NCBI RefSeq assembly: GCF_001598795.1
Contig: NZ_BCZP01000012.1
Span: forward strand, 150,001 to 182,000
Length of the DNA stretch: 32,000 nucleotides
Direction of reading: 5' to 3'
Source of the DNA: Delftia acidovorans NBRC 14950
GTDB taxonomy: Bacteria; Pseudomonadota; Gammaproteobacteria; Burkholderiales; Burkholderiaceae_C
Shown here in pieces: positions 7,078 through 22,999 of this stretch (the stretch's first letter is position 1; each line of letters opens with the position of its first letter). A model generated the notes under the pieces. That model saw only the letters and a list, made by a program, of their open reading frames with translations. It was not told the DNA's origin and ran no database searches. The position numbers were made by a program, and so were the translations under genes.

Positions 7078-7280
7078 TCAGGCCACGCAGGCCCCGGCCG
7101 CACTGGCGATGTGCCTGCAGGCCAATGCCGCGTCGCAGGCCTGGGGCGGGATCGATTGACAGAGCCTAAGGCGCTCTTGAGGAATCACAGTTTTCAGTGA
7201 TTGCCACCCACCCGCTTCCTTTGAACAATCCGCACTGACACCTCACGGGCAGCTGTACCGCCGTGTCGGGGTGCCCCAAG

Positions 7281-7307
7281 ACACGCGAAACACGCAAAAC
7301 ACGCAAA
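7281..7307 (+). repeat. 3 x 9-bp C/A-rich tandem repeat (ACACGCGAA ACACGCAAA ACACGCAAA) abutting the RCC1 gene RBS
   Basis: Read directly. It is preceded by CCCCAAGACA, a string also found in the 25425-25464 repeat, and followed by GGAGAGGG and the start codon. Confidence 0.8.
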
Positions 7308-7317
7308 GGAGAGGGTG

Positions 7318-8445
7318 ATGCTGACCATAGAAGAGGTAGTGGCGGGCCCGCAGCGGTCCGTGCTCATCACATCGGAGGGCGTATTCGCCTGGGGCAATCT
7401 GGAGGTGTTGCGCACCCTGCCCGAAGGCGTGGACGCTGCCGAGGTCTGTGCGCCCGATGCCACGCGCATCGGCCACCGCAGCTTTTCCCAGCCCGTGCCC
7501 CAGCGCCTGAGCCCCCGTGGCACGCGCTGGGAGGGGCTGGTGGACGCGGGCCATTCGCTGCTGGCCTGGGCGGATGGCCAGGCCTATGCCGTTGCGCCCC
7601 AGGTCCGCGATGCCGCGGGCGCCGTGCCCAGGCCTTTGGCCTTGGGCCGGCAGGATGCCGGGGTGCGGCGCATCTGGGCGGGTGAGCAGCAGGCCTATGT
7701 GCAGGACCGCGAAGGCGCACTCTGGGGATGGTCGGATGCCATGCCCGGTGCGCAGCGCGTGCAGGGCCTGCCCTCCGTGCGCAGCGTGTCCGTGGGCATG
7801 GGCCATGCGCTGGCGCTGGATGCCAGGGGGCAGGTCTGGTCCTGGGGCGCCAATGCTGCGGGCCAACTGGGGCAGGGCGATCTGGTGCGGCGCAGCCGTG
7901 CGCAGCGCGTGGTGCTGCCGCAGGGCGCTGCGGCCGTGGTGGCGGTGGCGGCAGGGGCCACGCACAGCCTGGCGCTGGATGAGAAGGGGCGGCTGTGGGG
8001 CTGGGGCTCCAACCACCAGGGCCAGCTGGACCAGGCGCTGCAGGCGGCCTACAGTCCCGGCCCCGTGCGCATTGCCGTGCCTGAGCGCCTCAGCAGTCTG
8101 GCGGCGGGCCTGCACTTTTCGGCGGCGACCACGCAGGGCGGGCAGGTGCTGGCCTGGGGCTGGAATGGCCTGGGCCAGCTGGGCCAGGGCGATGCGGCAC
8201 CCCGCGCGGGCTTTCACACTGTGCCCGGCCTGGCGGCGGTGCAGCAGATCAGCGTGGGAGGCACGCATGTGCTGGCCCTGGAGCGCGGCGGGCGCTGCTG
8301 GGCCTGGGGCGACAACCGCCATGGCGCCTGCCAGGGCCAGGACGGGGCCCAGGCCCAGTCCCGCCCCCATGCGCTGGCCTTGCACGCCCTCAATGACCTG
8401 ACCGAAACCAACGCAATCGCCGGCACGGCAAAGGAGGCCCTGTGA
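7318..8445 (+). CDS. RCC1-repeat (7-bladed beta-propeller) protein, no signal peptide
   Basis: Seven repeats are marked by VFAWGN, LLAWADGQ, LWGWSD, VWSWGANAAGQLGQGD, LWGWGSNHQGQLD, VLAWGWNGLGQLGQGD and CWAWGDNRHGACQG. RBS-like GGAGAGGG sits just upstream. The start is ATG 7318, or GTG 7315 as in the track. Confidence 0.85.
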   Translation: MLTIEEVVAGPQRSVLITSEGVFAWGNLEVLRTLPEGVDAAEVCAPDATRIGHRSFSQPVPQRLSPRGTRWEGLVDAGHSLLAWADGQAYAVAPQVRDAAGAVPRPLALGRQDAGVRRIWAGEQQAYVQDREGALWGWSDAMPGAQRVQGLPSVRSVSVGMGHALALDARGQVWSWGANAAGQLGQGDLVRRSRAQRVVLPQGAAAVVAVAAGATHSLALDEKGRLWGWGSNHQGQLDQALQAAYSPGPVRIAVPERLSSLAAGLHFSAATTQGGQVLAWGWNGLGQLGQGDAAPRAGFHTVPGLAAVQQISVGGTHVLALERGGRCWAWGDNRHGACQGQDGAQAQSRPHALALHALNDLTETNAIAGTAKEAL

Positions 8446-10205
8446 AGCACCTGCAACAGGAACAGTCAATGCCAGCCCCGGGCCTGAACCGCAGGGCGCT
8501 GCTGCAATGGGGCGCCTTGCTGACGGCGGGCGCCGTGCTGCCCGGCTGCGGCGGTGGAGGCGGGCCGCGCGACGATCTGCCCGAGCCGCAGGCGCTGCGC
8601 TCCGTCAACGGCGTGCTGGAGCTGCACCTGAACGTGGGCTATGCGTCCATGGACATGGACCTGCCGGACAGCGACATCGCGCGCTGGGCCCGCTATCCGG
8701 CCGATCGGCAGCCCGGGCGGCGTCTGGAGCTGCGCAGCTTCAATGGGCGATACACGGCGCCCACGCTGTGGCTGCGCCCCGGCGACACGCTGAAGATGTG
8801 GGTGCACAACCAGCTGCCGGCCTCGCCCCAGGGCTCGGACTGGGCGCTGCTCAACCACCAGAACAGCACCAACATGCATTTCCACGGCCTGCACGTGGAC
8901 CCGCGCGAGATACGGCCCGGCGTGTTTGGCGACTACGTGGTGGACGGGCCGGATGCCGGCATCGCGCCAGGCGCCACGCGCTACCACGAGATCCATCTGC
9001 CAGACGACCACAGTTGCGGCATCTACTGGTACCACCCGCATCTGCACGGCGCCACCAATGCCCAGGTCTCCAGCGGCATGTTCGGCGCCATCATCGTGGC
9101 CGATGCGCAGGACCCGTTCCGTGCCAGCGTGAACATGCGCGAGCGCGTGCTGTTCGCCCACAAGCTCACCGTCAATGCCAAGGGCCGCACCGATACGCTG
9201 GAAGACTCGATGCAGAATCCGGCCGGCGCCTTTTTGCTCAACGGCGCCTACCAGCCCACCATCGTGATGCGGCCCGGCGAGGTGCAGCATTGGCACATCG
9301 TCAATCCTTCGTCGTTCTACCCGCTGCATCCCGTGCTGGACGGGCATGTGATGAATGTCTATGGCCGCGACGGCAACCATTACGGCGGTATCTACCGGCC
9401 GCTGAGCCGGCAGACGGCCGGGCAGCCGCTGGACATGCGCGACTGGCCCGGCAACTACATCTACCCGGGCGGGCGCCTGTCCATGGTGGTGCAGGCATCG
9501 ATGGCGCCGGGCGAGTATTTCCTGCGCGCGGCCGCGTGCCCGTCCTTTCACCGGCCAAGCGGCAACGAGCCCTTTGAGGAGGTGCTGGCCCGGGTGGTGG
9601 TGCAGGGCGAGCCCGTGCAGGCCCGCGTGCCCGACCCGGCCCTGCTGCGCCGGCCCGGCGACTACACGCCCATCACCGATGCCGAACTGGCCAGCCATGG
9701 TGGCGTGCAGCGCGTCCTGCGCCTGGCCGTGCTGGCCGACGACGAGGACAAGGGCGTGCGCGACCCGGCCCTGGCGCCCATGCCGGCCGGCGAGAGCTGG
9801 GTGCTGAAGGTGGGCGGCAACCGATCGGTGTTTGCGGTGGGCACCGAGGCCATGCCGCTGGGCATGTCGCCCATCCATTCCAGCCTCACGCCTGTGCAGA
9901 CCGTGCCCTTCAATGCGGTGGAGGAGTGGACGATCTACAACTACAACGGCTACCCGCATCCCTTTCACATCCACGTCAACGATTGCTATGTGGTCAGGGT
10001 CAACGGCGCTCCGGTGACGCCCTTCTGGGCCGACACCCTGCCCGTGCCGCCGGGCACGGGCAGCAGCGGAGCGGCTGGGGTCACCAAGGGCAGCATCACC
10101 TTTCGCATGCGGTTTGCGGATTTCCACGGCAAGTTCGTCTGGCATTGCCATGCGCTGGACCATGAGGACCTGGGAATGATGCAGATCGTGGATGTGCGGC
10201 CCTGA
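8442..10205 (+). CDS. Three-domain multicopper oxidase with a twin-arginine signal and lipobox
   Basis: All four copper-ligand motifs are present: HFHGLH, WYHPHLHG, HPFHIHV and HCHALDHEDLGMM. The N-terminus NRRALLQWGALLTAGAVLPGCGGGG gives a Tat motif plus LPGC lipobox. AAGGAGG lies 4 nt before GTG 8442, which overlaps the RCC1 stop (GTGA). An alternative ATG is at 8469. Confidence 0.9.
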   Translation: MKHLQQEQSMPAPGLNRRALLQWGALLTAGAVLPGCGGGGGPRDDLPEPQALRSVNGVLELHLNVGYASMDMDLPDSDIARWARYPADRQPGRRLELRSFNGRYTAPTLWLRPGDTLKMWVHNQLPASPQGSDWALLNHQNSTNMHFHGLHVDPREIRPGVFGDYVVDGPDAGIAPGATRYHEIHLPDDHSCGIYWYHPHLHGATNAQVSSGMFGAIIVADAQDPFRASVNMRERVLFAHKLTVNAKGRTDTLEDSMQNPAGAFLLNGAYQPTIVMRPGEVQHWHIVNPSSFYPLHPVLDGHVMNVYGRDGNHYGGIYRPLSRQTAGQPLDMRDWPGNYIYPGGRLSMVVQASMAPGEYFLRAAACPSFHRPSGNEPFEEVLARVVVQGEPVQARVPDPALLRRPGDYTPITDAELASHGGVQRVLRLAVLADDEDKGVRDPALAPMPAGESWVLKVGGNRSVFAVGTEAMPLGMSPIHSSLTPVQTVPFNAVEEWTIYNYNGYPHPFHIHVNDCYVVRVNGAPVTPFWADTLPVPPGTGSSGAAGVTKGSITFRMRFADFHGKFVWHCHALDHEDLGMMQIVDVRP

Positions 10206-13633: not shown

Positions 13634-14899
13634 TCAGTTCCGGTGCCAGGGCGCCGGCACCATGTCGAAAAGCGGCGTGGGGTCGCGCCGGTAGGGCGCA
13701 GGGCTGATGGGCGCCATGGGCTGCATGGTCATGGGGTCGATGCGTGCCAGCTGCTGCATCCAGCCAATGTCCACACCGCCGCCCTGTGCGGGGCGCGAAT
13801 AGATCAACTCCAGCATGCGCCGCGATGCCACATGGCCGTGGGACGCCGCCTGCTGGTACAGGCGCAGGGCCTCGGTGTAGTTGGCCGGCACGCCTTCGCC
13901 ACGGTGATAGCGCTGGGCCTGCTCCCACTGCTGCTGGGCCGTGACGGGCTGGCGCACCTGGATGTCCTGCTCGCTGGGCGAGCCCCGCAACTCCGGCGTG
14001 CGCTGCAGCCGTTGCGGCCCCTGCGCCGCAGGCGGGGCAGACGTGCCCTGGGCCGACACGAGCTGGCCCGCGGGCCGCATGCGGTCGCCCAGCATCTGTG
14101 CATTGGTCGCCGCGCTGGATGAGCGTGGCGCCGCCGCGCGGAACTGGCGCAGGGCGGCCTCGGGCTCGTCCTGCGCGAGCAGGGCCAGGCCCCATTCCAG
14201 CTGGGCGCCGGGGCTGCCCGAACGCGCCGCGCGCTGCAGCAGTTCCTGGTCGGGCGTGCCTGCCACGGTCAAGGCCTCGCCCACGGGCTCGGCCGTGGAC
14301 AGCGGCGCCAGGCGCCGTGCCAGCAGCCATTCCAGGTATTGCGCACGGGCCGGGTCGGTCTTGGCCAGCTGGGCGATCCAGGGCCTTGCGGCCGGTGGAT
14401 CGGGGGGCTGGCCGCAGCCGTCCATGGCGCACCAGGCCAGTCCCGCGCTGGCCAGCGGATGGCCGGCGCGCTGGGCACGCTCGAACCAGTTCCTGGCCTG
14501 TGGCCCGTCCTGGGCCATGGCAATGCCATGCAGTGCCAGCAGGCCCATGACCCATTGCGCCTCGCGCTGCGTGGCTGGGCTCACGCCCTTGCCTTCGGCG
14601 CGGCTGCGCAGTTGGGACAGGGCCCGTTGCTGGGCGGTATCCGAGGTCGAATTGATGTTGCTGGTGCCCGGCTGGGAGCCGTACACGCTGGCCGTCGCCA
14701 CCCGGATGGGCATGACCGGCGTGAAGCGGGCTGCCGCCTGCACATGCGGCAGCACGGCGGGCGCCAGACCGGGCAGCACCACCAGCAGCCCGGGCAGCAC
14801 AAGCCTGGCGGTCAGGCGCAGCCCGCGGCGCCGCCGCGGCGAGGTTTCATGAGCGCTGGAGGGCATGGCAGGTGCCTCTGGTTGGCTTGTGGTCCGCAC
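13634..14899 (-). CDS. Secreted Sel1-like (TPR-type) repeat protein
   Basis: Signal-like N-terminus (RRRRGLRLTARLVLPGLLVVLPGLAPAVLPHVQAAA). Several Sel1-type units are present, e.g. QWEQAQRYHRGEGVPANYTEALRLYQQAASHGHVASRRMLELIY. The start is GTG 14899, 6 nt after the upstream stop, or ATG 14866 with an AGAGG 8 nt upstream. Confidence 0.75.
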   Translation of the reverse strand: MRTTSQPEAPAMPSSAHETSPRRRRGLRLTARLVLPGLLVVLPGLAPAVLPHVQAAARFTPVMPIRVATASVYGSQPGTSNINSTSDTAQQRALSQLRSRAEGKGVSPATQREAQWVMGLLALHGIAMAQDGPQARNWFERAQRAGHPLASAGLAWCAMDGCGQPPDPPAARPWIAQLAKTDPARAQYLEWLLARRLAPLSTAEPVGEALTVAGTPDQELLQRAARSGSPGAQLEWGLALLAQDEPEAALRQFRAAAPRSSSAATNAQMLGDRMRPAGQLVSAQGTSAPPAAQGPQRLQRTPELRGSPSEQDIQVRQPVTAQQQWEQAQRYHRGEGVPANYTEALRLYQQAASHGHVASRRMLELIYSRPAQGGGVDIGWMQQLARIDPMTMQPMAPISPAPYRRDPTPLFDMVPAPWHRN

Positions 14900-14905
14900 C
14901 GTGCA

Positions 14906-16543
14906 TCAGCGCTTGGCCTGGGCCGGCACCACCTGCCAGAAGCGGGCCGAGCCGGTGTACCCATCTGCGCCCAGCGAGCTGGCCATGTACTGGTTGACAT
15001 CCTCCAGGGAGCGCATGCCCGGGATGGCGATGAAGGCCTTGCCCTGCAGCAGGGTGGGCAGCTTGTCGGTCATGTTCTGCTCGGTAGCGAAGCAGGCCAC
15101 GCCTTCCTTGCCGGGAGGGCCGGCGTTGATCACATAGCCGGGGTTGGGGCTCATCCAGTCGGGCAGGCGCACGGACTGGGCGGCGGTGATCCAGCCCGAG
15201 CGGTTCACGTCGTTGGGCACCAGCCGGGTGACCTCGCCATCGGCGCCCGCCATGAAGCACGACAGGTAGGAGGCACGCGACACGGTGGTGGACAGGAAGA
15301 GCTGCTCACCCGTCTCGAAGGAGGTGCGGGTGGGCGTGATGTTCTCCACCCACAGGTCCAGCTTGCGGTCGGGCGCGGGGGCGCCGTAGCGGTAGTCGCC
15401 CGTGCCCACGGCCACGTTCTCGGAGGCGGTGGTGACCGGCGCTGCGCTCTTGGTGTTCCAGCCAATGCGCGTGATGTGCCCATCGGCGCCCACGGCCACG
15501 AAGTCGCGCAGTGCGCGTTCGTAGGTGTTGAAGTCCACCACGCCGCTGACCACCATGCCGCTGTCGGCCTGGAAGCGCCCTATGGCCTCGCGCCACTGCG
15601 GGTTGCCTGCGGTGAAGGCCGGGGCGTCCGGCGGCAGATAGCCCTTGCTGATCAGCGACTGGCGCACCAGTTCCTGGTGGATGCCGGCTTCGCCTTCTTC
15701 GTACCAGTCGCGCAGCTGGCGCTGGAAGTCGGGGTGGGTCTGGTCCAGCGTCAGGCACTGCCAGTAGGGCAGGCGCGACCATTTGCCCAGCAGCTCGATC
15801 ATGCCCAGCTCGACCAGGGTGCGCACGGCCGGGCCCGAGCCCTGGGCATAGTCGCGGCCCACGCTGAACTGCACGCCGTAGGTGCCGATGCGGCCGGACA
15901 GGTCCAGCCCCTGGCTGCCGTTGCCGATGACGACCTCGTTGGCCGAATCCAGGCCCGGGATGATGGTGCGCGTGCGGAAGTCGCCCAGGTGCAGCTCCAT
16001 GCCCAGCACGGCGCCGCTGCGGTTGGCGCTGTAGCCGGTTTCCAGGCGCGAGGCGCTGGTGCCTATGTCCACGTTGTTGCGCAGCACGTTCTGGTCCATG
16101 AAGGACACGGCGCCCGACACATACAGGGCAGGGCGCTGCAGCTGGATCTGGTTGTTGTTGAGCAAGATGGTGGTGAGGTTCTGCACCGTATCCTGGCGGG
16201 CGATGTCCACCTCATAGTCCACGTAGCGGAAGGCACTGCTGACGCGCGACATCTGGGACAGGGCGGTGACCACCATCTCCTTGGCGGCCACGGCCACGCG
16301 GCCCGAGTAGTCGGGCAGCTGCTTGCTGGTGATCAGCACCGTGGGCATGTGGCTGTTGCGGAACATCCTGTCCATGCACATCAGCGAGTCGGAAAAGCTC
16401 GATATCGAGCGCACCGGCCGCACCACGGGGCGGTCGGCCGCATAGACCTTGTCAAGGTACTTGGCGTCCTTGCGCGCATCCAGCGGCGCGCAGCCCGACA
16501 GCAGCACGATGGAGGCCGAGACGGCGCAGGCAATGGCCCGCAT
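14906..16543 (-). CDS. Outer-membrane lipoprotein with three parts: CsgG/HfaB-like secretion-channel domain, peptidoglycan-binding (PG_binding_1-like) domain and DUF4384-like domain
   Basis: ATG 16543 gives MRAIACAVSASIVLLSGC (lipobox, Ala at +2). Residues ~45-265 align by eye with E. coli CsgG blocks (AVAAKEMVVTALSQ vs SATAMLVTALKD; ALYVSGAVSFMDQNV vs NIMVEGSIIGYESNV; GPAVRTLVELGMIELL vs EPVMLCLMSAIETGVIFLI). Residues ~286-345 fit the PG-binding pattern (LVRQSLISKGYL...WREAIGRFQADSGMVVSGVVDFNTYERAL). Residues ~395-490 resemble DUF4384 (LWVENITPTRTSFETGEQLFLSTTVSRASYLSCFMAGADGEVTRLVPND). Confidence 0.8.
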   Translation of the reverse strand: MRAIACAVSASIVLLSGCAPLDARKDAKYLDKVYAADRPVVRPVRSISSFSDSLMCMDRMFRNSHMPTVLITSKQLPDYSGRVAVAAKEMVVTALSQMSRVSSAFRYVDYEVDIARQDTVQNLTTILLNNNQIQLQRPALYVSGAVSFMDQNVLRNNVDIGTSASRLETGYSANRSGAVLGMELHLGDFRTRTIIPGLDSANEVVIGNGSQGLDLSGRIGTYGVQFSVGRDYAQGSGPAVRTLVELGMIELLGKWSRLPYWQCLTLDQTHPDFQRQLRDWYEEGEAGIHQELVRQSLISKGYLPPDAPAFTAGNPQWREAIGRFQADSGMVVSGVVDFNTYERALRDFVAVGADGHITRIGWNTKSAAPVTTASENVAVGTGDYRYGAPAPDRKLDLWVENITPTRTSFETGEQLFLSTTVSRASYLSCFMAGADGEVTRLVPNDVNRSGWITAAQSVRLPDWMSPNPGYVINAGPPGKEGVACFATEQNMTDKLPTLLQGKAFIAIPGMRSLEDVNQYMASSLGADGYTGSARFWQVVPAQAKR

Positions 16544-16750
16544 GCAACCCTGTCTGCCGGACCATCGCTGGCGGAAAGTCCCACGGTCGTCCGCATGGCC
16601 GCCGAGTGCCGGCTGCAGCGCGGCATCGGGGCGGGGAAGTCCTGGCGATGGAAGGCGGTTGCGCATGATGGACCTCTGCTGGAAAACGGCGAGCCAGGGC
16701 ACAGGCGCGCACGGGCGTCGGCGCCGGAAATGGGGGGATCGATAAATGGT

Positions 16751-16783: not shown

Positions 16784-17206
16784 CTAGCGGCAGACGTTGA
16801 CCAGGTCGCCCTTGAGGACCACGATCTGGTCCTTGGTCTGGGGCCCATAGCGGTTGAATGCGCTGGCGTTGGTGTTGCTGGCCAGGTCCTGGGTGCAGGT
16901 GCGCTGCATGCCCGTGCTGCTCGTCGTGGTCGTGGTCACCACGTTCGCTTCGGTGGAGATACCGGGCGCATTGGTCATGGACATGGCTTCGTAGCGCGCG
17001 ATCTTGGCCTTGACATTGATGGGGATGTCGGTGACGGTGTCCAGCCCCGACGATGTCGGCTGCTTGGCCGTGGGCAGCCTGAGGTAGTCGACGGGCTTGT
17101 TCAGCACCACCGGGTCTTCGCCGGGGGCCGCTGCATGAAGGGGGGTCGCTCCGAGGGCGAGCCAGGCCAATAGGGTAGCCGAACAGAGATGGGCGGCGGT
17201 GTGCAT
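16784..17206 (-). CDS. Secreted 140-aa protein carrying one C-terminal copy of the fibre-subunit repeat; candidate nucleator or adaptor
   Basis: AGGAG lies 7 nt upstream of ATG 17206. Signal peptide MHTAAHLCSATLLAWLALGATPLHA|AAPG. There is a Thr/Ser-rich linker. The C-terminal QDLASNTNASAFNRYGPQTKDQIVVLKGDLVNVCR aligns with NNLASNYGEVDVKSTSIQVVAAKNSGIIN of the neighbouring repeat protein. No known family was recognised. Confidence 0.7.
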   Translation of the reverse strand: MHTAAHLCSATLLAWLALGATPLHAAAPGEDPVVLNKPVDYLRLPTAKQPTSSGLDTVTDIPINVKAKIARYEAMSMTNAPGISTEANVVTTTTTSSTGMQRTCTQDLASNTNASAFNRYGPQTKDQIVVLKGDLVNVCR

Positions 17207-17255
17207 GGTGGGCTCTCCTGGTGCGGTGAGCTGGGTCTTCGCCGGGAAGGTGCCG

Positions 17256-17278
17256 CCGGGTGGCCTGGGGCCGCCCGG
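17256..17278 (-). other. GC-rich intercistronic hairpin between the repeat-protein gene and the 140-aa gene
   Basis: CCGGGTGGCC TGG GGCCGCCCGG on the plus strand. On the minus-strand mRNA there is one C/A mismatch and no U-tract. Confidence 0.35.
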
Positions 17279-17304
17279 CAGTTTCCTTCGTCCGGCAGCC
17301 AGGC

Positions 17305-17790
17305 TCAGTGGTTGTTGTAGCAGGTCACGCAGCCGTTGTTGCTGGAGATGTTCTGCACTGCCGTGGAACCGTTGCCGGCGTAGTTGATGATGCCGGAGTT
17401 CTTGGCAGCCACCACCTGGATCGAAGTGCTCTTCACGTCCACTTCGCCATAGTTGGAGGCCAGGTTGTTGACGGCCACTGCGCTATAGCCATCGGCCTTG
17501 TTCAGGATGCCGCTGCCGGTGGCTGCGACGACTTGCAGCGAGCTGCCACTGCGATCGATGGTCACGTTGCCTGCATTGCTGGCCAGGTTCTGGGAGGCCT
17601 TGCCACCACCCGTTGCCACGTTCAGCACGCCGCTCCTGTTCAGCAGGGTGACCTGAACGCTGGGGCCATTGATTTCGATCTGGGAGCTGCTGCTGCCGCC
17701 GCCGCCACCGCCGCCACCGCCACCACCCATGGGGCCTGCCATGGCAGCTGTTGCGATCAAGCTCAGGGAAAGAATTGCAAGCGATTTCAT
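17305..17790 (-). CDS. Secreted 161-aa poly-Gly / triple-repeat protein; candidate curlin-like beta-solenoid fibre subunit
   Basis: AGGAG lies 4 nt upstream of ATG 17790. Signal peptide MKSLAILSLSLIATAAMA. This is followed by GPM-G11-SSSS and then three imperfect ~37-40-aa repeats (QV.(L/A)...SG(V/I)(L/I)N.A......A..N(L/I)(A/S)SN.G.V). The C-terminus is GCVTCYNNH. The listed ORF 17305..17940 was trimmed to the signal-peptide start. Confidence 0.8.
   Translation of the reverse strand: MKSLAILSLSLIATAAMAGPMGGGGGGGGGGGSSSSQIEINGPSVQVTLLNRSGVLNVATGGGKASQNLASNAGNVTIDRSGSSLQVVAATGSGILNKADGYSAVAVNNLASNYGEVDVKSTSIQVVAAKNSGIINYAGNGSTAVQNISSNNGCVTCYNNH
17695..17727 (-). repeat. (GGN)11 trinucleotide tract encoding the Gly11 run of the repeat protein
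   Basis: The plus strand reads gcc gcc gcc gcc acc gcc gcc acc gcc acc acc, flanked by four Ser codons. Confidence 0.9.
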
Positions 17791-18328
17791 GATGGCTCCT
17801 TGATGAAGAATCGGACTATCAGGAAGAGGTGTGTAAGCACCCGTTTTGCAGACACTTTGCGGAGGTTTCCGGCTTTGTCTCCCTGGACCCCTGCTCGTTG
17901 TCTGGACTCCAATGTGCTCGGGGAGATCCGTCCATTCCATCTCTTGTCCGGGGTAGCCATGAGCGCTGATCCACTTGCCGGGTACTTACCCACCCAAGCC
18001 GTTTGCAGGCAGGCTGCATCGCGTTAAAGCGGCAGCCGTGCGCAATGAATGGATCTGGGTAGTTTCAAGGTGTAACGACAGAAAATTTACGGTTGCAGCT
18101 TTGCTTGGGGTCGCCGTCTCGGCGGGTGCGGGGGCTTTTGGGCAACCTGGTGTATCGAAGTGCACGCACCTGAGGCCGGCGACCGCAACAAAGGCGGGAT
18201 CGGCCTTTGTCACAGGGCGGGATTGAAGGCGCGGTGCGCGGTGTCTGGATCCGCAAGATCTGCCGGACCGGCGCTCAGGAAACTCCGTAGTCGATTCCTC
18301 ACACAAAGGTGTTAATTTGTAATCTACG

Positions 18329-18357
18329 CAATCTTTCACAAACTTCGTCAAAGATTG
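18329..18357. promoter_or_regulatory. Inverted repeat CAATCTTT-N13-AAAGATTG (candidate operator)
   Basis: Perfect 8-bp arms at 18329-18336 and 18350-18357, in the AT-rich patch ~90 nt upstream of the response regulator start. Confidence 0.4.
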
Positions 18358-18362
18358 TGGAT

Positions 18363-18413
18363 ATCGGTTGCGATTTCTCTTAATGTGGAAAGGCAAGTCT
18401 GTGATCGGTTGCG
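18363..18413. promoter_or_regulatory. Direct repeat ATCGGTTGCG x2, spaced 41 bp start to start (candidate regulator binding sites)
   Basis: Identical 10-mers at 18363-18372 and 18404-18413, upstream of the response regulator RBS. Confidence 0.35.
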
Positions 18414-18447
18414 TCATACACATGGCGTGACATTTGAGGAGAGCAGC

Positions 18448-19227
18448 ATGAATCCATCCGACGTTCCCGCCGATGCCCGTCCCCTGATCGCCGAGTCCCC
18501 TCGCGCCCAGGGCATGCTGGGCACAGGGCTGAGTTCTGCCATGTGGCCTGACTACCTGGCGGGCCAGCCCGACAAGCCCGTGCGGGTGCTGCTGGTGGAC
18601 GACGATGCCCATATCCGCATGGTCATTGCGCAGGAAATCATGAACGACCCGCGCACCCTGGTCGTGGCCCAGGCCGGCAGCGTGCGCGACGGGCGCAAGG
18701 CCATCCGCCAGCATGAATTCGACGTGATGCTGGTGGACCTGAACCTGGGTGACGGCGAGGGCTTCGAGCTGCTGGACATGATGAAGACCGTGCGGCCCAC
18801 GGCCGAGGCCGTCATCATCTCCGTGATGGAAAACGACGAACAGGTGCTGCGCGCCTTCGAGCTGGGCGCCACGGGCTACCTCGTCAAGAACTCCTGGTTC
18901 GGCAACTATCCGCAGGCCGTGCTGCAGGTGGCCAATGGCGGCGCATCCGTCACCCCCAGCCTGGCGCGCAGGTTGCTGCAGCGCTTCGACAAGACCCAGG
19001 GCGCCGAGCCCAAGCGCCGCACGCCCGACGAGGCAGACCGCCTGTCCACCCGCGAGCGCGAGGTGCTGCGCATGGTCGCCAGCGGCTATACCAGCGCCGA
19101 GATCGGCTCGCGCCTGATGATCAGCGCCATGACGGTCAACACGCACATCAAGAACATCTACCGCAAGCTGCAGGTGCGCACACGCGCCCAGGCGGTACGC
19201 TTTGCATCGCTGCGCGGCCTGTTCTGA
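18448..19227 (+). CDS. Two-component response regulator, NarL/FixJ (LuxR-type HTH) family
   Basis: GAGGA lies 7 nt upstream of ATG 18448. The receiver has canonical residues (LLVDDD, MLVDLNLGDG, IISV, GYLVK). The C-terminal LuxR HTH is LSTREREVLRMVASGYTSAEIGSRLMISAMTVNTHIKNIYRKLQV. About 45 aa precede the receiver. Confidence 0.9.
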   Translation: MNPSDVPADARPLIAESPRAQGMLGTGLSSAMWPDYLAGQPDKPVRVLLVDDDAHIRMVIAQEIMNDPRTLVVAQAGSVRDGRKAIRQHEFDVMLVDLNLGDGEGFELLDMMKTVRPTAEAVIISVMENDEQVLRAFELGATGYLVKNSWFGNYPQAVLQVANGGASVTPSLARRLLQRFDKTQGAEPKRRTPDEADRLSTREREVLRMVASGYTSAEIGSRLMISAMTVNTHIKNIYRKLQVRTRAQAVRFASLRGLF

Positions 19228-19302
19228 TCCTGGGGCGGCGTCCTGCCCGCAGCGGCCTGCCGCCGCCCGGGCCATGGCGGCCGCGCCTGGCACGGCTTGG
19301 CC

Positions 19303-20226
19303 ATGAAAGATCCCCTTCGCACGCTGGCCATCTGCCTGGCCCTGGGCCTGCTGCAGATGCTGGGCCTGTGCGCCTGGCTCTGGCAGGCGGGCGCCCAGGC
19401 CCCGCCGTGGCTGAGCCTGGCCAGCCTGGCGCTGCTGGTATCCACGGCGCTGCTGTGCGCCATGGGCGCCCGGCGACTGCACAGGCTGCTGCTGTGGCGG
19501 CGCCGGCGCAGTCCCCGGCCCTCGCGCGAAGTGCAGGCCGAGCGCCGGCGCATTGCCGCCGACCTGCATGACGGCGTGGGCGGGCTGCTGGTGCATGCCA
19601 TGGCCTTGCTGGACCCGCGCGAGACCCGCCAGCGCCAGGCGCAGGAATTGCTGGAGCAGGGCTTGCTGGACCTGCGGCTCATGGTGGATGCCATGGACGC
19701 CATGGAAGACGCCTTGCCCGTGCGGCTGGCGCGCCTGCGCCACCGGCTGCAGCCCGTGCTGGACCGGCGCGGCATGCGCATCTGCTGGAGCGTGGCCGAT
19801 CCGCATGCCGCCGCCGGGCTGCGCGGGGTGCCGGACCTGCCAGTCTTGCAAGACCTGCCAGACCTGCCGCGTGGCCAGCCGTCCCAGCAGTTGCTGGCCA
19901 TCGCCCAGGAGGCCGTGAGCAATGCGCTGCAGCATGCGCGCGCCACCACGCTGTGGCTGGTGCTGGAGCCGGTGGATCGTGCAGATGCTGCAAGCCCTGG
20001 CCGCGATGCCCGGCGTGCATTGCACTGGGAACTGCGCGTGGAAGATGACGGCTGCGGCCTGCCGTCCGACCCTGGCCCTGGCCCTGGCCCTGCGCAGGGT
20101 GCCATCCCGCCTGGCCTGCAGGGCATGGGCCTGGCAGGCATGCATCGCCGCGCCCATGCCATCGGGGCTGTGCTGGACATCCTGCCGCGGGCCGGTGGGG
20201 GTACCGTGGTGCGTGTGCGCTGGTGA
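19303..20226 (+). CDS. Sensor histidine kinase, HisKA_3/NarX-DesK type, two TM helices and almost no periplasmic loop
   Basis: H-box ERRRIAADLHDGVGG, N-box EAVSNALQHA, G1 VEDDGCGL and G2 GMGLAGMHRRA. Two N-terminal hydrophobic helices are separated by ~9 residues. The start is ATG 19303; the track starts at TTG 19297. Confidence 0.85.
   Translation: MKDPLRTLAICLALGLLQMLGLCAWLWQAGAQAPPWLSLASLALLVSTALLCAMGARRLHRLLLWRRRRSPRPSREVQAERRRIAADLHDGVGGLLVHAMALLDPRETRQRQAQELLEQGLLDLRLMVDAMDAMEDALPVRLARLRHRLQPVLDRRGMRICWSVADPHAAAGLRGVPDLPVLQDLPDLPRGQPSQQLLAIAQEAVSNALQHARATTLWLVLEPVDRADAASPGRDARRALHWELRVEDDGCGLPSDPGPGPGPAQGAIPPGLQGMGLAGMHRRAHAIGAVLDILPRAGGGTVVRVRW
20071..20092 (+). repeat. (CCTGGC) hexanucleotide tandem repeat (~3.5 units) encoding PGPGPGP between the kinase G1 and G2 boxes
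   Basis: Read directly: cctggccctggccctggccctg, inside the histidine kinase CDS. Confidence 0.8.
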
Positions 20227-20371
20227 TCGGGCCGATGCGCCGGCGGCAACGGCGTTCCGGCAATTGCGGTGCCCGCTGACAGGGCAGGCCCGCGGCGCGC
20301 TGTGCAATCCCCCGATATGCGGATGTGAGGCAGTATCCATACCTGCATCCAAGCCCTGACATCCCGTTTCC

Positions 20372-22999
20372 ATGAACCCACATTCCGACCCTGCGCCGTC
20401 GCCTTCACGGCAGGCCCTTCCTGCCGCCGCCGAAGGCGGCAATGCGGCCAATGCAGCCGCGAATTCCGCTACCCATGCCGCCACCCATGCCGATTTCGCG
20501 CGCAGCGTGCGTTCGGCCCTGCCGGGCCTGGCACAGCTGGCCGACATGGTGCCCGCGCTGCGCCTGCTCACCGGGCTGCTGGTGGCCAGCATCGTCATCG
20601 CCGGCCTGTATTTCGGCCAGGGCCTGCTGATTCCGCTGGCGCTGGCGCTGTTGTTCGGTTTTTTGCTGGATCCGGCCGTCTCCCGGCTCAAGCGCTGGGG
20701 CATGCCGCGCATGGCGGCCACGCTGCTGGTGGTGGTCATGGCGCTGGCGACGCTGGCGGGAATGGGTACCTATCTGGGCAGCCAGGTGCAGCAGCTCAGC
20801 GCCGATCTGCCCACCTACCAGAACACCATCCGCGACAAGCTGCGCAGCCTGCGCAGGAACGCCAACATGCCCAGTGCCTGGGACGGCGCGCTGCGCACCT
20901 ATGACACCGTGGAACGCGAGATATCGCGCGGCGCCACCACGCCCCGCGTGCAGAAGGTGGAGATCCAGTCGCCAGAGCAAAAGCCCACGGCGCGCATGCT
21001 GCAGTGGCTGGGCCGCGTGGCCGAGCCCGTGACCATGGCCGGCATCGTGCTGCTGTTCGTGATCCTCATCCTGCTGGACCGCGATGACCTGCGCGACCGG
21101 CTGCTGCGCCTGATGGGCGGCAACCTGCACGTGGCCACCGACGCGCTGGACGAGGCCTCGCAGCGCATAGGCAAGTACCTGCGCATGCAGTTCGTCGTCA
21201 ACATCACCTACGGACTGCCCATGGCGGCGGGGCTGTGGTTCATTGGCGTGCCGGGCGCCATTCTCTGGGGCGTGCTGGCGGCCATCATGCGTTTCGTGCC
21301 ATATGTGGGGGCCATGATCTCGGCCGCCTTCCCGCTGGCGCTGGCCTTTGCCGTGGACCCGGGCTGGCAGATGCTGCTGATGACGCTGGGCCTGATCATG
21401 GCGCTGGAGCTGATCAGCAACAACCTCATCGAGCCCTGGCTGTATGGCAGCAGCACGGGCCTGTCCACGCTGTCCATCATCGTGTCGGCCACCTTCTGGA
21501 CGGCGCTGTGGGGGCCGATAGGGCTGATCCTGTCCACGCCGCTCACGGTCTGCCTGCTGGTGCTGGGGCGCTACATCCCGGCGCTGCAATTCATGGAAGT
21601 GCTGCTGGGCAGCTCGCCCGTGCTGGGGCCGGCCCAGCGCCTGTACCAGCGCCTGCTGGCCGACGACGTGGAAGACGCGGTCACGCTGGCGCATGAACTG
21701 GTGGACGCAAGGCTGCCGGCGCGCGCCTCGGCGGACGAACGCTCGGCCGCAGTGGCCGGTTTCTATGACGAGGTGGCCATCCCCGCACTGCGCCTGGCCA
21801 CGCAGCAGCACCTGGAATCGGCCACGGCCGAACACCGGCTGCGCCTGTCCAGCGGCATGGATGCCCTGATCGAGGAACTGCGCGAAAGCCATCCGCCGCC
21901 CGCTTCGGCCCTGGCCACACGCGCCCTGCGCATCCATTGCGTGGGCGCGCGCTGGGAGGTCGATGCCCTGGCCGCCGCCATGGTGGCGCACAGCGAGGCG
22001 CTGCGCGGCCACGTGGTCAGCTGCTCGGACTGGGCCCTGGCCGCCGACCCGCAATGGCGCCAGCTGGGACCGGGGCAGGGCGGCCTGCCGCAAGGCCACG
22101 CAGGAGCGCAGGCCCTGGCCGAGGCGCAATTGCTGGTGCTGTCCGTCTTCAGCACCCAGCCCCAGACCGTGGTGCGCCAACTGATGCGCCGCGTGCGCCG
22201 CCATTGGCCGCACCTGCGCGTGGTGCTGGCGCTGTGGAATGCGCCGGCCGTGGTGTCCGACCCCGAGTTCGCGCGCCGCTGCGGCGCCGCCGCCTGCGTG
22301 TCCGGCCTGCGCGAGCTGCAGTTGTGGGTGGACGCCTTGCGCCTGCCTGACGCGGCAGGCCAGGGCCTGGCCGCGCCCATTCCCGATGACGATGAGCAGC
22401 GCGTGCGCCAACTGCACGACAGCGGCGTGCTCGGGCCCGGCCTGCCGCCGCTGTACCACGAGGCAGCCCAGCAGGCCGCCAATGCCTTCGATGTGAAATG
22501 GGCCCAGGTCTCATGGGTCGATGCCGACCGCGTGCACACGCCCGGCAGCCTGCTGGTGGCGGACCAGGGCGACCCGGCTTCCGCCGGCATGCCGCGTGCG
22601 CAGTCCATCTGCTCCTACGTGGTCCATGGCGGTGACGCCCTGGTGGTGCATGACGCCGCGCGCGACCCCCGATTTGCCGGCAACCCCGCGTTGCAGGCGA
22701 TGCGGCTGCGCTTTTACGCGGGCGTGCCGCTCAAGAACCGCCACGGCACGGTGCTGGGCAGCTTTTGCATCATGGACGACGCGCCGCGCGAGGTCTCGGC
22801 GGCAGATCTGGAGCTGCTGGGCGTCATGGCCGAGCAGTTGATGCAGAACGTGGAGGTGCGCCGGATGATGGAAGCTGGCGCTGCACCGGCTCCGGTGCAG
22901 ACTTCGGCACAAACTCCGGCGCAAGTGGCATCCCAAACGACACCCCAGCCACCATCGTCGTCACCATCGACAACACCCCAACCGAGTGCTGGCGGCTGA
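20372..22999 (+). CDS. AI-2E family (PerM/UPF0118) permease fused to a long cytoplasmic region ending in a GAF domain
   Basis: The N-terminal ~400 aa are multi-TM with AI-2E-like blocks (LLIPLALALLFGFLLDP...RLKRWGMPR; LIEPWLYGSSTGLSTLSIIVSATFWTALWGPIGLILSTPLT). The C-terminal GAF-like segment is SICSYVVHGGDALVVHDAARDPRFAGNP...LRFYAGVPLKNRHGTVLGSFCIMD. The tail is rich in Pro, Ser, Thr and Gln. Confidence 0.8.
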   Translation: MNPHSDPAPSPSRQALPAAAEGGNAANAAANSATHAATHADFARSVRSALPGLAQLADMVPALRLLTGLLVASIVIAGLYFGQGLLIPLALALLFGFLLDPAVSRLKRWGMPRMAATLLVVVMALATLAGMGTYLGSQVQQLSADLPTYQNTIRDKLRSLRRNANMPSAWDGALRTYDTVEREISRGATTPRVQKVEIQSPEQKPTARMLQWLGRVAEPVTMAGIVLLFVILILLDRDDLRDRLLRLMGGNLHVATDALDEASQRIGKYLRMQFVVNITYGLPMAAGLWFIGVPGAILWGVLAAIMRFVPYVGAMISAAFPLALAFAVDPGWQMLLMTLGLIMALELISNNLIEPWLYGSSTGLSTLSIIVSATFWTALWGPIGLILSTPLTVCLLVLGRYIPALQFMEVLLGSSPVLGPAQRLYQRLLADDVEDAVTLAHELVDARLPARASADERSAAVAGFYDEVAIPALRLATQQHLESATAEHRLRLSSGMDALIEELRESHPPPASALATRALRIHCVGARWEVDALAAAMVAHSEALRGHVVSCSDWALAADPQWRQLGPGQGGLPQGHAGAQALAEAQLLVLSVFSTQPQTVVRQLMRRVRRHWPHLRVVLALWNAPAVVSDPEFARRCGAAACVSGLRELQLWVDALRLPDAAGQGLAAPIPDDDEQRVRQLHDSGVLGPGLPPLYHEAAQQAANAFDVKWAQVSWVDADRVHTPGSLLVADQGDPASAGMPRAQSICSYVVHGGDALVVHDAARDPRFAGNPALQAMRLRFYAGVPLKNRHGTVLGSFCIMDDAPREVSAADLELLGVMAEQLMQNVEVRRMMEAGAAPAPVQTSAQTPAQVASQTTPQPPSSSPSTTPQPSAGG

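Follow-up and report, generated by a model that had tools for sequence, protein, structure and literature searches.

A 32,000-nucleotide (nt) stretch of DNA from Delftia acidovorans NBRC 14950 (contig NZ_BCZP01000012.1, positions 150,001 to 182,000; hereafter the window, in which all positions are numbered from 1) encodes a lipoprotein in which a domain with the fold of CsgG, the curli secretion pore, and of HfaB, its counterpart in the holdfast anchor of Caulobacterales, is joined to a peptidoglycan-binding domain and a DUF4384 beta-sandwich. With a probability of roughly 0.6, this lipoprotein is considered to be the outer-membrane pore of a hitherto undescribed curli- or holdfast-anchor-like (type VIII-like) secretion-assembly module, and two small secreted proteins encoded upstream of it, here termed A and B, are probably what the pore exports. 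The window is Delftia acidovorans/tsuruhatensis DNA, and encoded protein matches in two related loci (L004, L005) were 98% identical.

The relevant minus-strand frame runs without interruption from 16702 down to its stop codon at 14906, with a coding signal evident as a GC content of 0.93 at the third codon position and 0.47 at the second, and more than 840 homologues of its product were recovered, those from Delftia being 94–98% identical. The original prediction, made from the letters of the sequence and a list of open reading frames (ORFs), had proposed a lipoprotein with CsgG-like, PG_binding_1-like and DUF4384-like regions, and domain analyses located all three where they had been placed: the region called CsgG-like (nt 15749–16411, amino acids (aa) 45–265) lies within a CsgG-folding domain of aa ~19–268, while Pfam assigned PG_binding_1 to nt 15518–15667 (predicted 15509–15688, aa 286–345) and DUF4384 to nt 15077–15319 (predicted 15074–15361, aa 395–490). 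When aa 1–290 were searched against 1.84 billion cluster representatives, 637 relatives were returned at an expectation value (E) ≤1e-3, mostly of 500–550 aa; these constitute a family of 637 clusters at 50% identity, present in at least 272 species-level genomes, for which the only database label is 'DUF4384 domain-containing protein'. The three-domain layout persists down to ~28% identity, and the CsgG-fold region is the best-conserved part of the lipoprotein. Fusion of the domains is nevertheless optional, in that a stand-alone 260-aa family member exists with similar small genes upstream of it. Two cysteine pairs, C56/C263 and C429/C484, are invariant in an alignment of 22 sequences (A5), and both fit an extracytoplasmic location.

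Assignment of the N-terminal domain to the CsgG fold was approached both by profile comparison and by structure prediction. When aligned with E. coli CsgG by hhalign, the family profile gave a probability of 91.9% (E 7.1e-7, 217 columns), which rose to 95.5% (E 1.4e-8, 236 columns, family positions 11–284 against CsgG 9–271) with 150 sequences, the match running end to end with the lipobox included. Searches of the Protein Data Bank (PDB) by sequence, which had yielded nothing relevant when either the protein alone or a shallow profile of 44 sequences served as query, recovered solved CsgG chains at E 0.035 when a more diverse family profile was used. Similarly, AlphaFold2 modelling of the full-length protein with close homologues only left the N-terminal domain at a predicted local distance difference test score (pLDDT) below 50, while modelling with a diverse alignment of 150 sequences gave a mean pLDDT of 89.4 for this domain and a predicted template-modelling score of 0.82. 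Comparison of the resultant model with the PDB by Foldseek placed CsgG in all of the top 25 positions, the best match being 6l7a_A (E 9.5e-14, probability 1.0, ~270 columns); the leading hits were CsgFG curli-complex entries, and the membrane-bound form 4uv3 was also among them. Structure analysis placing this region outside the CsgG fold had been named in advance as grounds for abandoning the prediction, and the region in fact falls inside that fold.

The first of the alternatives to be weighed is that the resemblance to CsgG is spurious, and that the gene encodes a plain periplasmic protein with DUF4384 and PG-binding domains. The lack of a Pfam CsgG match, the barren PDB sequence searches with the single protein or shallow profile, and the initial pLDDT of less than 50 would all be expected of such a protein. 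Set against them are the confident model obtained once the alignment was deepened, the independent convergence of sequence-profile and structure searches on CsgG over the full domain, and the position of the CsgG-like region as the most conserved part of the lipoprotein. Chance resemblance is thereby effectively ruled out.

Within the superfamily, the N-terminal domain is by sequence closer to HfaB than to CsgG, since the HfaB model (NCBIfam NF037935) weakly matched 43 of 63 sampled relatives (best E 4.2e-10) as against six of the 63 for Pfam CsgG (E<0.01, best 4.3e-6). The Delftia lipoprotein itself matched the HfaB model at E 5.9e-4 over almost its whole length (aa 13–252 against model positions 3–257 of 264). 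The description 'CsgG-like' consequently stands as a statement about fold, while as a statement about family it must be amended, the region being unrecognised by the Pfam CsgG model and nearer to HfaB. The family is a deep branch of the CsgG/HfaB superfamily, being neither a Pfam CsgG member nor an HfaB equivalog, and it probably works like CsgG and HfaB.

The AlphaFold2 model, a monomer, carries two long beta-hairpins corresponding to the transmembrane hairpins TM1 and TM2 of CsgG. Mean hydropathy calculated over 150 relatives alternates residue by residue around both hairpin tips, with positions 160/162/164, 167/169/171, 213/215/219 and 222/224/226/228 making up a hydrophobic face opposite one that is polar or glycine, a pattern that is as expected of a lipid-facing barrel. 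In common with CsgG (PDB 4uv3, 4q79, 6l7a and 6si7), the lipoprotein has the alpha/beta core with both TM1 and TM2 hairpins that characterises the fold, a C-terminal helix, and a lipobox at the same position. It differs in sharing only ~16% identity, in the extra conserved Cys56–Cys263 pair, and in ~280 additional C-terminal residues that comprise the PG_binding_1 and DUF4384 domains.

A further difference concerns the constriction. Retention of the CsgG constriction loop had been proposed as a check on the prediction, and the outcome was negative: both hhalign runs placed a 12-residue gap exactly opposite CsgG 'KPYPASNFSTAV', the segment containing Tyr51, Asn55 and Phe56, and no insertion occurs at this site in the 22 aligned relatives. 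In the AlphaFold2 model the loop that joins strand 1 to helix 2 is 13 residues long, and the D-x-[ST]-G motif beside it is retained.

The missing loop is also what might be anticipated if the lipoprotein were not a pore at all, and instead formed a periplasm-facing ring or scaffold at the outer membrane, in the manner of PelC, LpoB, HpaA or GNA1162, that acted on or sensed the cell wall by means of its PG-binding and DUF4384 domains. In keeping with this alternative, the Foldseek list continues after CsgG with HpaA, PelC and GNA1162 (E ~1e-4 to 4e-3), one relative weakly matches the LpoB model, and one UniRef homologue is named 'peptidoglycan hydrolase-like protein with peptidoglycan-binding domain'. 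However, proteins of the HpaA, PelC, LpoB and GNA1162 types are without the two long hairpins, both of which are present in the lipoprotein with their alternating hydrophobicity conserved, and the Foldseek E-values for CsgG are some 9–10 orders of magnitude better. Moreover, no hydrolase or other enzyme domain was detected in the lipoprotein by Pfam, a result that eliminates the peptidoglycan hydrolase role as such, and a non-pore function gives no reason for two small secreted proteins to be encoded in such strict linkage with the lipoprotein. On balance, the non-pore alternative is regarded as improbable.

With respect to targeting, the initially chosen coding sequence of 545 aa starts at ATG 16543 and begins MRAIACAVSASIVLLSGC, continuing APLD; from the n-region to the lipobox it reads MR-AIACAVSASIVL-LSGC, which fits the bacterial lipoprotein pattern of a positively charged n-region, a hydrophobic core and a lipobox [LVI][ASTVI][GAS]C, and the same pattern is seen across genera. 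The Gly-Cys pair is invariant in an alignment of 28 homologues (A1) and the lipobox cysteine likewise in a second of 44 (A2), and in the hhalign alignments the LLSGC of the Delftia lipoprotein falls on the identical lipobox of E. coli CsgG, with its cysteine exactly opposite the lipidated one. The lipoprotein assignment, with alanine at the +2 position, was thus upheld. In E. coli, lipoproteins lacking Asp at +2 are sorted to the outer membrane. As the +2 residue across the family is Ala, Thr or Ser and never Asp, application of this rule predicts outer-membrane sorting.

The start codon is a separate matter. A second in-frame ATG is present at 16666 (MRNRLPSPGL...) with a GAGG Shine-Dalgarno sequence 7 nt 5' of it, and database homologues start at its counterpart, giving a precursor of 586 aa. 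The ATG at 16666 and its GAGG are shared by Delftia and a Comamonas metagenome-assembled genome (86% identical), while two Delftia-group homologues (P0001 and P0003) have Leu or Lys in place of the Met of 16543; for these reasons the conserved ATG at 16666 is probably the true start. The suggestion that an upstream start would make the lipobox internal was accordingly borne out only in part: the start initially chosen is probably wrong, and the lipobox stands functionally. With the longer leader, the signal peptide would gain a long Arg-rich n-region, and the lipobox is not rendered functionally internal, because the cysteine still directly follows the hydrophobic core, leaders in other genera (~20–35 aa) likewise end L-[LA]-[AS]-G-C, the cysteine is invariant, and it aligns with that of CsgG. 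A Tat signal in the long leader was considered and rejected, as the twin arginines are not conserved across genera.

Both C-terminal domains were recognised by Pfam. The DUF4384 match (57.3 bits against a cut-off of 27) extends over model positions 2–80 of 81, with strands modelled at pLDDT 70–92 and the Cys429/Cys484 pair within it; a Foldseek search with the low-confidence full-length model, aimed at placing this domain, gave weak immunoglobulin-like (Ig-like) and carbohydrate-binding-module-like matches only. PG_binding_1 was matched by 41 of the 63 relatives (best E 8.3e-14), and among solved structures the family profile matched the peptidoglycan-binding domains of L,D-transpeptidase, CtpB and SleB (best E 1.4e-5). 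The proposal that a peptidoglycan anchor replaces the accessory factors which position or gate the channel fits awkwardly with the conserved operon, as the latter carries two small secreted partners plus a Sel1-repeat protein. In addition, the HxsA model (TIGR03979, His-Xaa-Ser repeat protein) matched 37 of the 63 family members, presumably through the shared DUF4384 region. If so, the DUF4384 of the lipoprotein would be tied to HxsA, which is part of a radical-SAM-associated system.

The immediate neighbourhood of the lipoprotein gene was compared across 82 related loci (alignment A5), all of them from Comamonadaceae. Gene A was present in 77, gene B in 80, the gene for the Sel1-repeat protein in 78, that for a divergently transcribed response regulator in 71 and that for its adjoining histidine kinase in 62, and most of the absences fall in loci whose flank on the side concerned is short or missing. 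In essentially all of the loci with enough flank, the order A–B–pore–Sel1 is held, whereas the outer flanking genes (Tex, HDOD) vary. The regulator has the same arrangement in the 71 loci in which it was found. The set A–B–lipoprotein–Sel1 is a conserved module rather than a chance neighbourhood.

The product of gene A has a signal peptide, a run of glycines, three Gln/Asn/Ser/Gly-rich repeats of ~38 aa that are 40–47% identical to one another, and C-x-x-C at its C-terminus. Across the family, the repeats have the consensus IxGxSxQ...VxNxAxG...AxQNLASNxGNVT, and the mature protein contains 19% Gly, 14% Ser and 13% Asn. As a separate observation, the poly-Gly stretch after the Delftia signal peptide resembles the Gly-rich N-terminal segment of CsgA. 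The product of gene B also carries a signal peptide, and its homologues are all named 'hypothetical'. Directly 3' of gene A lies a GC-rich stem-loop without a U-tract. Of 76 related loci (among L002–L083), 76% have a comparably stable hairpin at the equivalent place, unrelated in sequence (z<-2, median z -2.8); these values are rough, since the z-scores derive from mononucleotide shuffles. In pilus operons, a hairpin located after the gene for the major subunit raises its expression relative to that of downstream genes. By analogy, the hairpin may act within the operon as an attenuator or mRNA stabiliser, raising A over the genes downstream. The repeats, the richness in Gln, Asn and Gly, and the hairpin that follows the gene together point to A as a candidate exported fibre or adhesin subunit, and likely as the bulk subunit.

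Further afield, relatives of the lipoprotein at 28–49% identity were found in Limnobacter, Magnetococcales and metagenome contigs, and directly 5' of them lie genes for one or two secreted repeat proteins of ~95–105 aa, plus a secreted protein of ~93–106 aa ending ...VV[VI]xGx[VI]INVC[KNR]. Hidden Markov models (HMMs) constructed from the Comamonadaceae A and B families recovered A-like proteins (E 1.9e-20 and 6e-4) and B-like proteins (E 6.9e-8, 1.4e-4, 0.008 and 0.02) from these distant loci (Z=1000 in each case). In the most distant of these loci, that of the stand-alone 260-aa member included, nothing beyond gene position and the C-terminal motif of B can be recognised: this motif, in which a hydrophobic strand leads to a Cys and a final Lys, Arg or Asn (e.g., VVLKGDLVNVCR, TTVIRGDVISVCK, IVVIEGAVVNQAECR), persists where the remaining sequence has diverged past HMM detection. 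Downstream partners differ by lineage, comprising Sel1-repeat proteins, OmpA-domain proteins or WD40 propellers. In the locus of the stand-alone member (L088 and L089), a gene for a collagen-like protein with GPQGERG repeats was observed just 5' of the two small genes; its product might represent a different cargo or a surface fibre.

On the basis of these data, the following sequence of events can be envisaged. The precursor would be exported by Sec, lipidated on the invariant cysteine and, having no Asp at +2, sorted to the outer membrane, where the CsgG/HfaB-fold domain would oligomerise, as a nonamer by analogy with CsgG, and the two amphipathic hairpins of each subunit would together form a beta-barrel. 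The absence of the constriction loop would imply that the lumen is narrowed or gated by other means, for which the fused C-terminal domains and B are candidates. PG_binding_1 would tie the periplasmic ring to the cell wall, and the DUF4384 beta-sandwich would hang below the ring as a docking or capping module; approximately nine copies of each could thereby make up a periplasmic collar that positions the pore relative to the wall, and docks or cages the substrate. In the curli system, substrate docking and caging are the role of a separate protein, CsgE. The cargo would consist of A and B, with the Gln/Asn-rich three-repeat A stacking into a fibre or surface layer, and the conserved, Cys-containing B serving to nucleate, cap or anchor it. 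The Sel1-repeat protein may act as a periplasmic scaffold or chaperone, and the divergent LuxR-type two-component pair may control expression in the way that CsgD does for curli.

CsgG is required for the surface localisation of curlin. HfaB plays the same part for amyloid-like HfaA and for HfaD (PMC6707917; bioRxiv 10.1101/2022.07.20.500906). HfaB is also the nearest profile to the Delftia lipoprotein. It too belongs to the CsgG superfamily, is a lipoprotein of the outer membrane, and has small secreted proteins, thought to be its cargo, encoded alongside it. However, judged by model length (264 positions), HfaB has no fused PG_binding_1 or DUF4384 domain, its operon contains hfaA and hfaD whereas the Delftia neighbours A and B match no Hfa model or NCBIfam family, and the Delftia host is a betaproteobacterium with no holdfast polysaccharide genes nearby.

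These comparisons bear directly on a second type of pore-based function, in which the module would not export fibres but serve as an anchor of the holdfast type: the pore plus surface-located A and B would tether exopolysaccharide or matrix, as proposed for HfaABD, with the link to peptidoglycan bearing the load. This alternative overlaps the secretion-assembly reading on the pore, and differs from it in the end product. It accords with the closer relationship of the N-terminal domain to HfaB than to CsgG (43/63 vs 6/63), with the opinion that the function of HfaB goes beyond the export of HfaA and HfaD and may include contact with polysaccharide (bioRxiv 10.1101/2022.07.20.500906), with the suitability of a wall anchor for a load-bearing role, with the weak carbohydrate-binding-module-like and Ig-like fold matches of DUF4384, and with the occurrence of OmpA-domain genes beside the pore gene in distant loci. 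It accords less well with the failure to find polysaccharide synthesis or export genes near the module in the 32-kb window, with the reported restriction of HfaA to Caulobacterales (bioRxiv 10.1101/2022.07.20.500906), to which may be added the lack of any match between A or B and an Hfa model, and with the predicted periplasmic location of DUF4384, which would be remote from any surface polysaccharide. An anchoring role is thus thought unlikely, less so than a non-pore role.

Several results must be weighed against the assignment of the lipoprotein as the pore of a secretion-assembly module. The protein itself gave no match to Pfam CsgG (PF03783) at E ≤1, and its score of 19.1 bits with the HfaB model is far below the equivalog cut-off of 300. 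The residues that define the peptide-diffusion channel of CsgG are absent, and the PG_binding_1 match only just clears the Pfam threshold (26 bits, cut-off 23), the usual D-G-x-x-G segment being replaced in Comamonadaceae. No Pfam or NCBIfam family was matched by A or B, whether as close or distant copies, and the fibre-forming nature ascribed to them consequently relies on composition and repeats. Nor do they show detectable homology to CsgA, CsgB, CsgC, CsgE or CsgF: hhalign comparisons with the E. coli proteins gave probabilities below 5%, which rules out A and B as curli components, and Curlin_rpt was likewise without a Pfam match.

A more specific version of the secretion-assembly reading can be advanced, albeit tentatively and with rather less confidence than an even chance. 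According to this version, A, B and the lipoprotein would constitute an unrecognised type VIII-like fibre or adhesin system of Beta- and Alphaproteobacteria and Magnetococcales, in which A would represent a new Gln/Asn-ladder, functional-amyloid-like class that is unrelated in sequence to curlin, and would leave the cell through the wall-anchored CsgG-fold pore, which would lack the canonical constriction and be gated by its own fused domains or by B.

In relation to systems described previously, the Delftia module resembles that of curli in that a LuxR-family regulator is transcribed divergently from it, just as csgD is from csgBAC in E. coli, but CsgG is encoded with csgE, csgF and the curlin genes, to whose products A and B show no detectable homology. 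A widespread and poorly understood CsgG/HfaB-family cluster of Acinetobacter and Neisseria, which is linked to matrix and biofilm formation, consists of a CsgG homologue and two putative lipoproteins, one of them a GNA1162 homologue (bioRxiv 10.1101/2021.05.19.444899); its CsgG homologue stands alone and has lipoprotein partners, whereas the Delftia protein has fused domains and secreted partners that are not lipoproteins. Other proteins with DUF4384, namely HxsA, orthocaspases and Ser/Thr kinases, share the C-terminal beta-sandwich and are without the CsgG-fold domain. A structure-mining resource names many 'CsgG-like' pores and leaves the Delftia-type family untreated (PMC13397529), and full-text literature searches on DUF4384, on CsgG-like proteins, on CsgG with HfaB, and on CsgG with peptidoglycan-binding domains found no description of the architecture or the operon. 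What is new by comparison with curli and the holdfast anchor is a putative pore with its own cell-wall tether and beta-sandwich, from which the constriction loop is missing, and whose partners belong to new families. While not categorically new, such a module is of solid interest to the fields of curli, holdfast and outer-membrane biogenesis.

To our knowledge, curli and the holdfast anchor are the only CsgG-type systems with assigned cargo. If correct, the secretion-assembly reading would add a third, with its own cargo families and concealed until now under the DUF4384 label; it would also place DUF4384 for the first time in the functional setting of an envelope machine, and provide a natural experiment in the form of a CsgG-fold pore that lacks the Tyr/Asn/Phe constriction and has a built-in wall tether. 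CsgG already provides the scaffold for commercial nanopore sequencing pores, so that a homologue whose lumen is shaped differently may be of practical use. Common biofilm formers of water systems and plants include Delftia, Acidovorax, Comamonas and Polaromonas, in which a hitherto unknown surface-fibre system would deserve attention.

Table 1. Positions of the lipoprotein gene, its domains and structural elements, the neighbouring genes, and A-like and B-like genes in distant loci (locus handle before the colon)
Feature	Position	Strand	Basis or remarks
Tri-domain lipoprotein coding sequence	14906..16543 including stop	(-)	545 aa from ATG 16543; translation, GC content at third codon position, homologues
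Signal-peptide hydrophobic core and lipobox LLSG-C (Cys18, +2 Ala)	16490..16543	(-)	Alignments A1/A2, hhalign
CsgG/HfaB-fold domain, aa 19–268	15740..16489	(-)	AlphaFold2, Foldseek, hhalign, HfaB model
Short strand 1–helix 2 loop, aa 74–86, KQLPDYSGRVAVA	16286..16324	(-)	hhalign gap, AlphaFold2 secondary structure
Predicted beta-hairpin 1, aa 140–188, counterpart of CsgG TM1	15980..16126	(-)	AlphaFold2 strands 140–163, 167–188
Predicted beta-hairpin 2, aa 193–233, counterpart of CsgG TM2	15845..15967	(-)	AlphaFold2 strands 193–219, 222–233
PG_binding_1-type helical domain, aa 293–342	15518..15667	(-)	Pfam PF01471, E 1.1e-5, 26 bits, cut-off 23
DUF4384 beta-sandwich, aa 409–489, folded unit to ~aa 540	15077..15319	(-)	Pfam PF14326, E 1.6e-15
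Gene A, 161-aa secreted protein	17305..17790	(-)	Translation, AAGGAG ribosome-binding site, repeats
GC-rich stem-loop without U-tract, between A and B	17255..17279	(-)	
Gene B, 140-aa secreted protein	16784..17206	(-)	Conserved APGEDPV, KAKxARYEAKA and T-C motifs; C-terminus ...VVLKGDLVNVCR
Sel1-repeat protein, starting 6 nt past the lipoprotein stop	13634..14899	(-)	Pfam Sel1, E 3.4e-11
Response regulator (receiver and LuxR/GerE helix-turn-helix), divergent	18355..19227	(+)	Pfam
Histidine kinase (HisKA_3 and HATPase_c), divergent	19228..20226	(+)	Pfam; coordinates stop-to-stop
A-like genes	L084:163-462, L085:4974-5606, L086:310-621, L087:5311-5613		Consensus ...AxQN[LI][AS]SNxGxVxI.G...
B-like genes, immediately 5' of the pore gene	L084:565-846, L085:5697-5981, L086:1316-1594, L087:5674-5994, L088:4705-5004, L090:589-939		
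Collagen-like genes	L088:3748-4362, L089:3214-4362		GPQGERG repeat

The DNA surrounding the module was also scanned for regulatory elements and compositional features. No sigma-70 promoter was found by the scan, terminator-like sites occurred at chance level, Rfam gave no match anywhere in the window, and nothing convincing was obtained by way of repeats in the intergenic region between A and the regulator. GC content dips to 0.61–0.62 at 17001–19000, compared with ~0.69 in the rest of the window, and the dip spans A, B, the 565-nt intergenic region between A and the regulator, and the start of the regulator gene.

Elsewhere in the window, a single plus-strand ORF at 20360–22999 combines an AI-2E family transporter domain (aa 72–400) with a C-terminal GAF domain (aa 698–829), and a gene for a bacterial RCC1-repeat (beta-propeller) protein at 7225–8445 (+) precedes and overlaps that for a three-domain multicopper oxidase at 8397–10205 (+).

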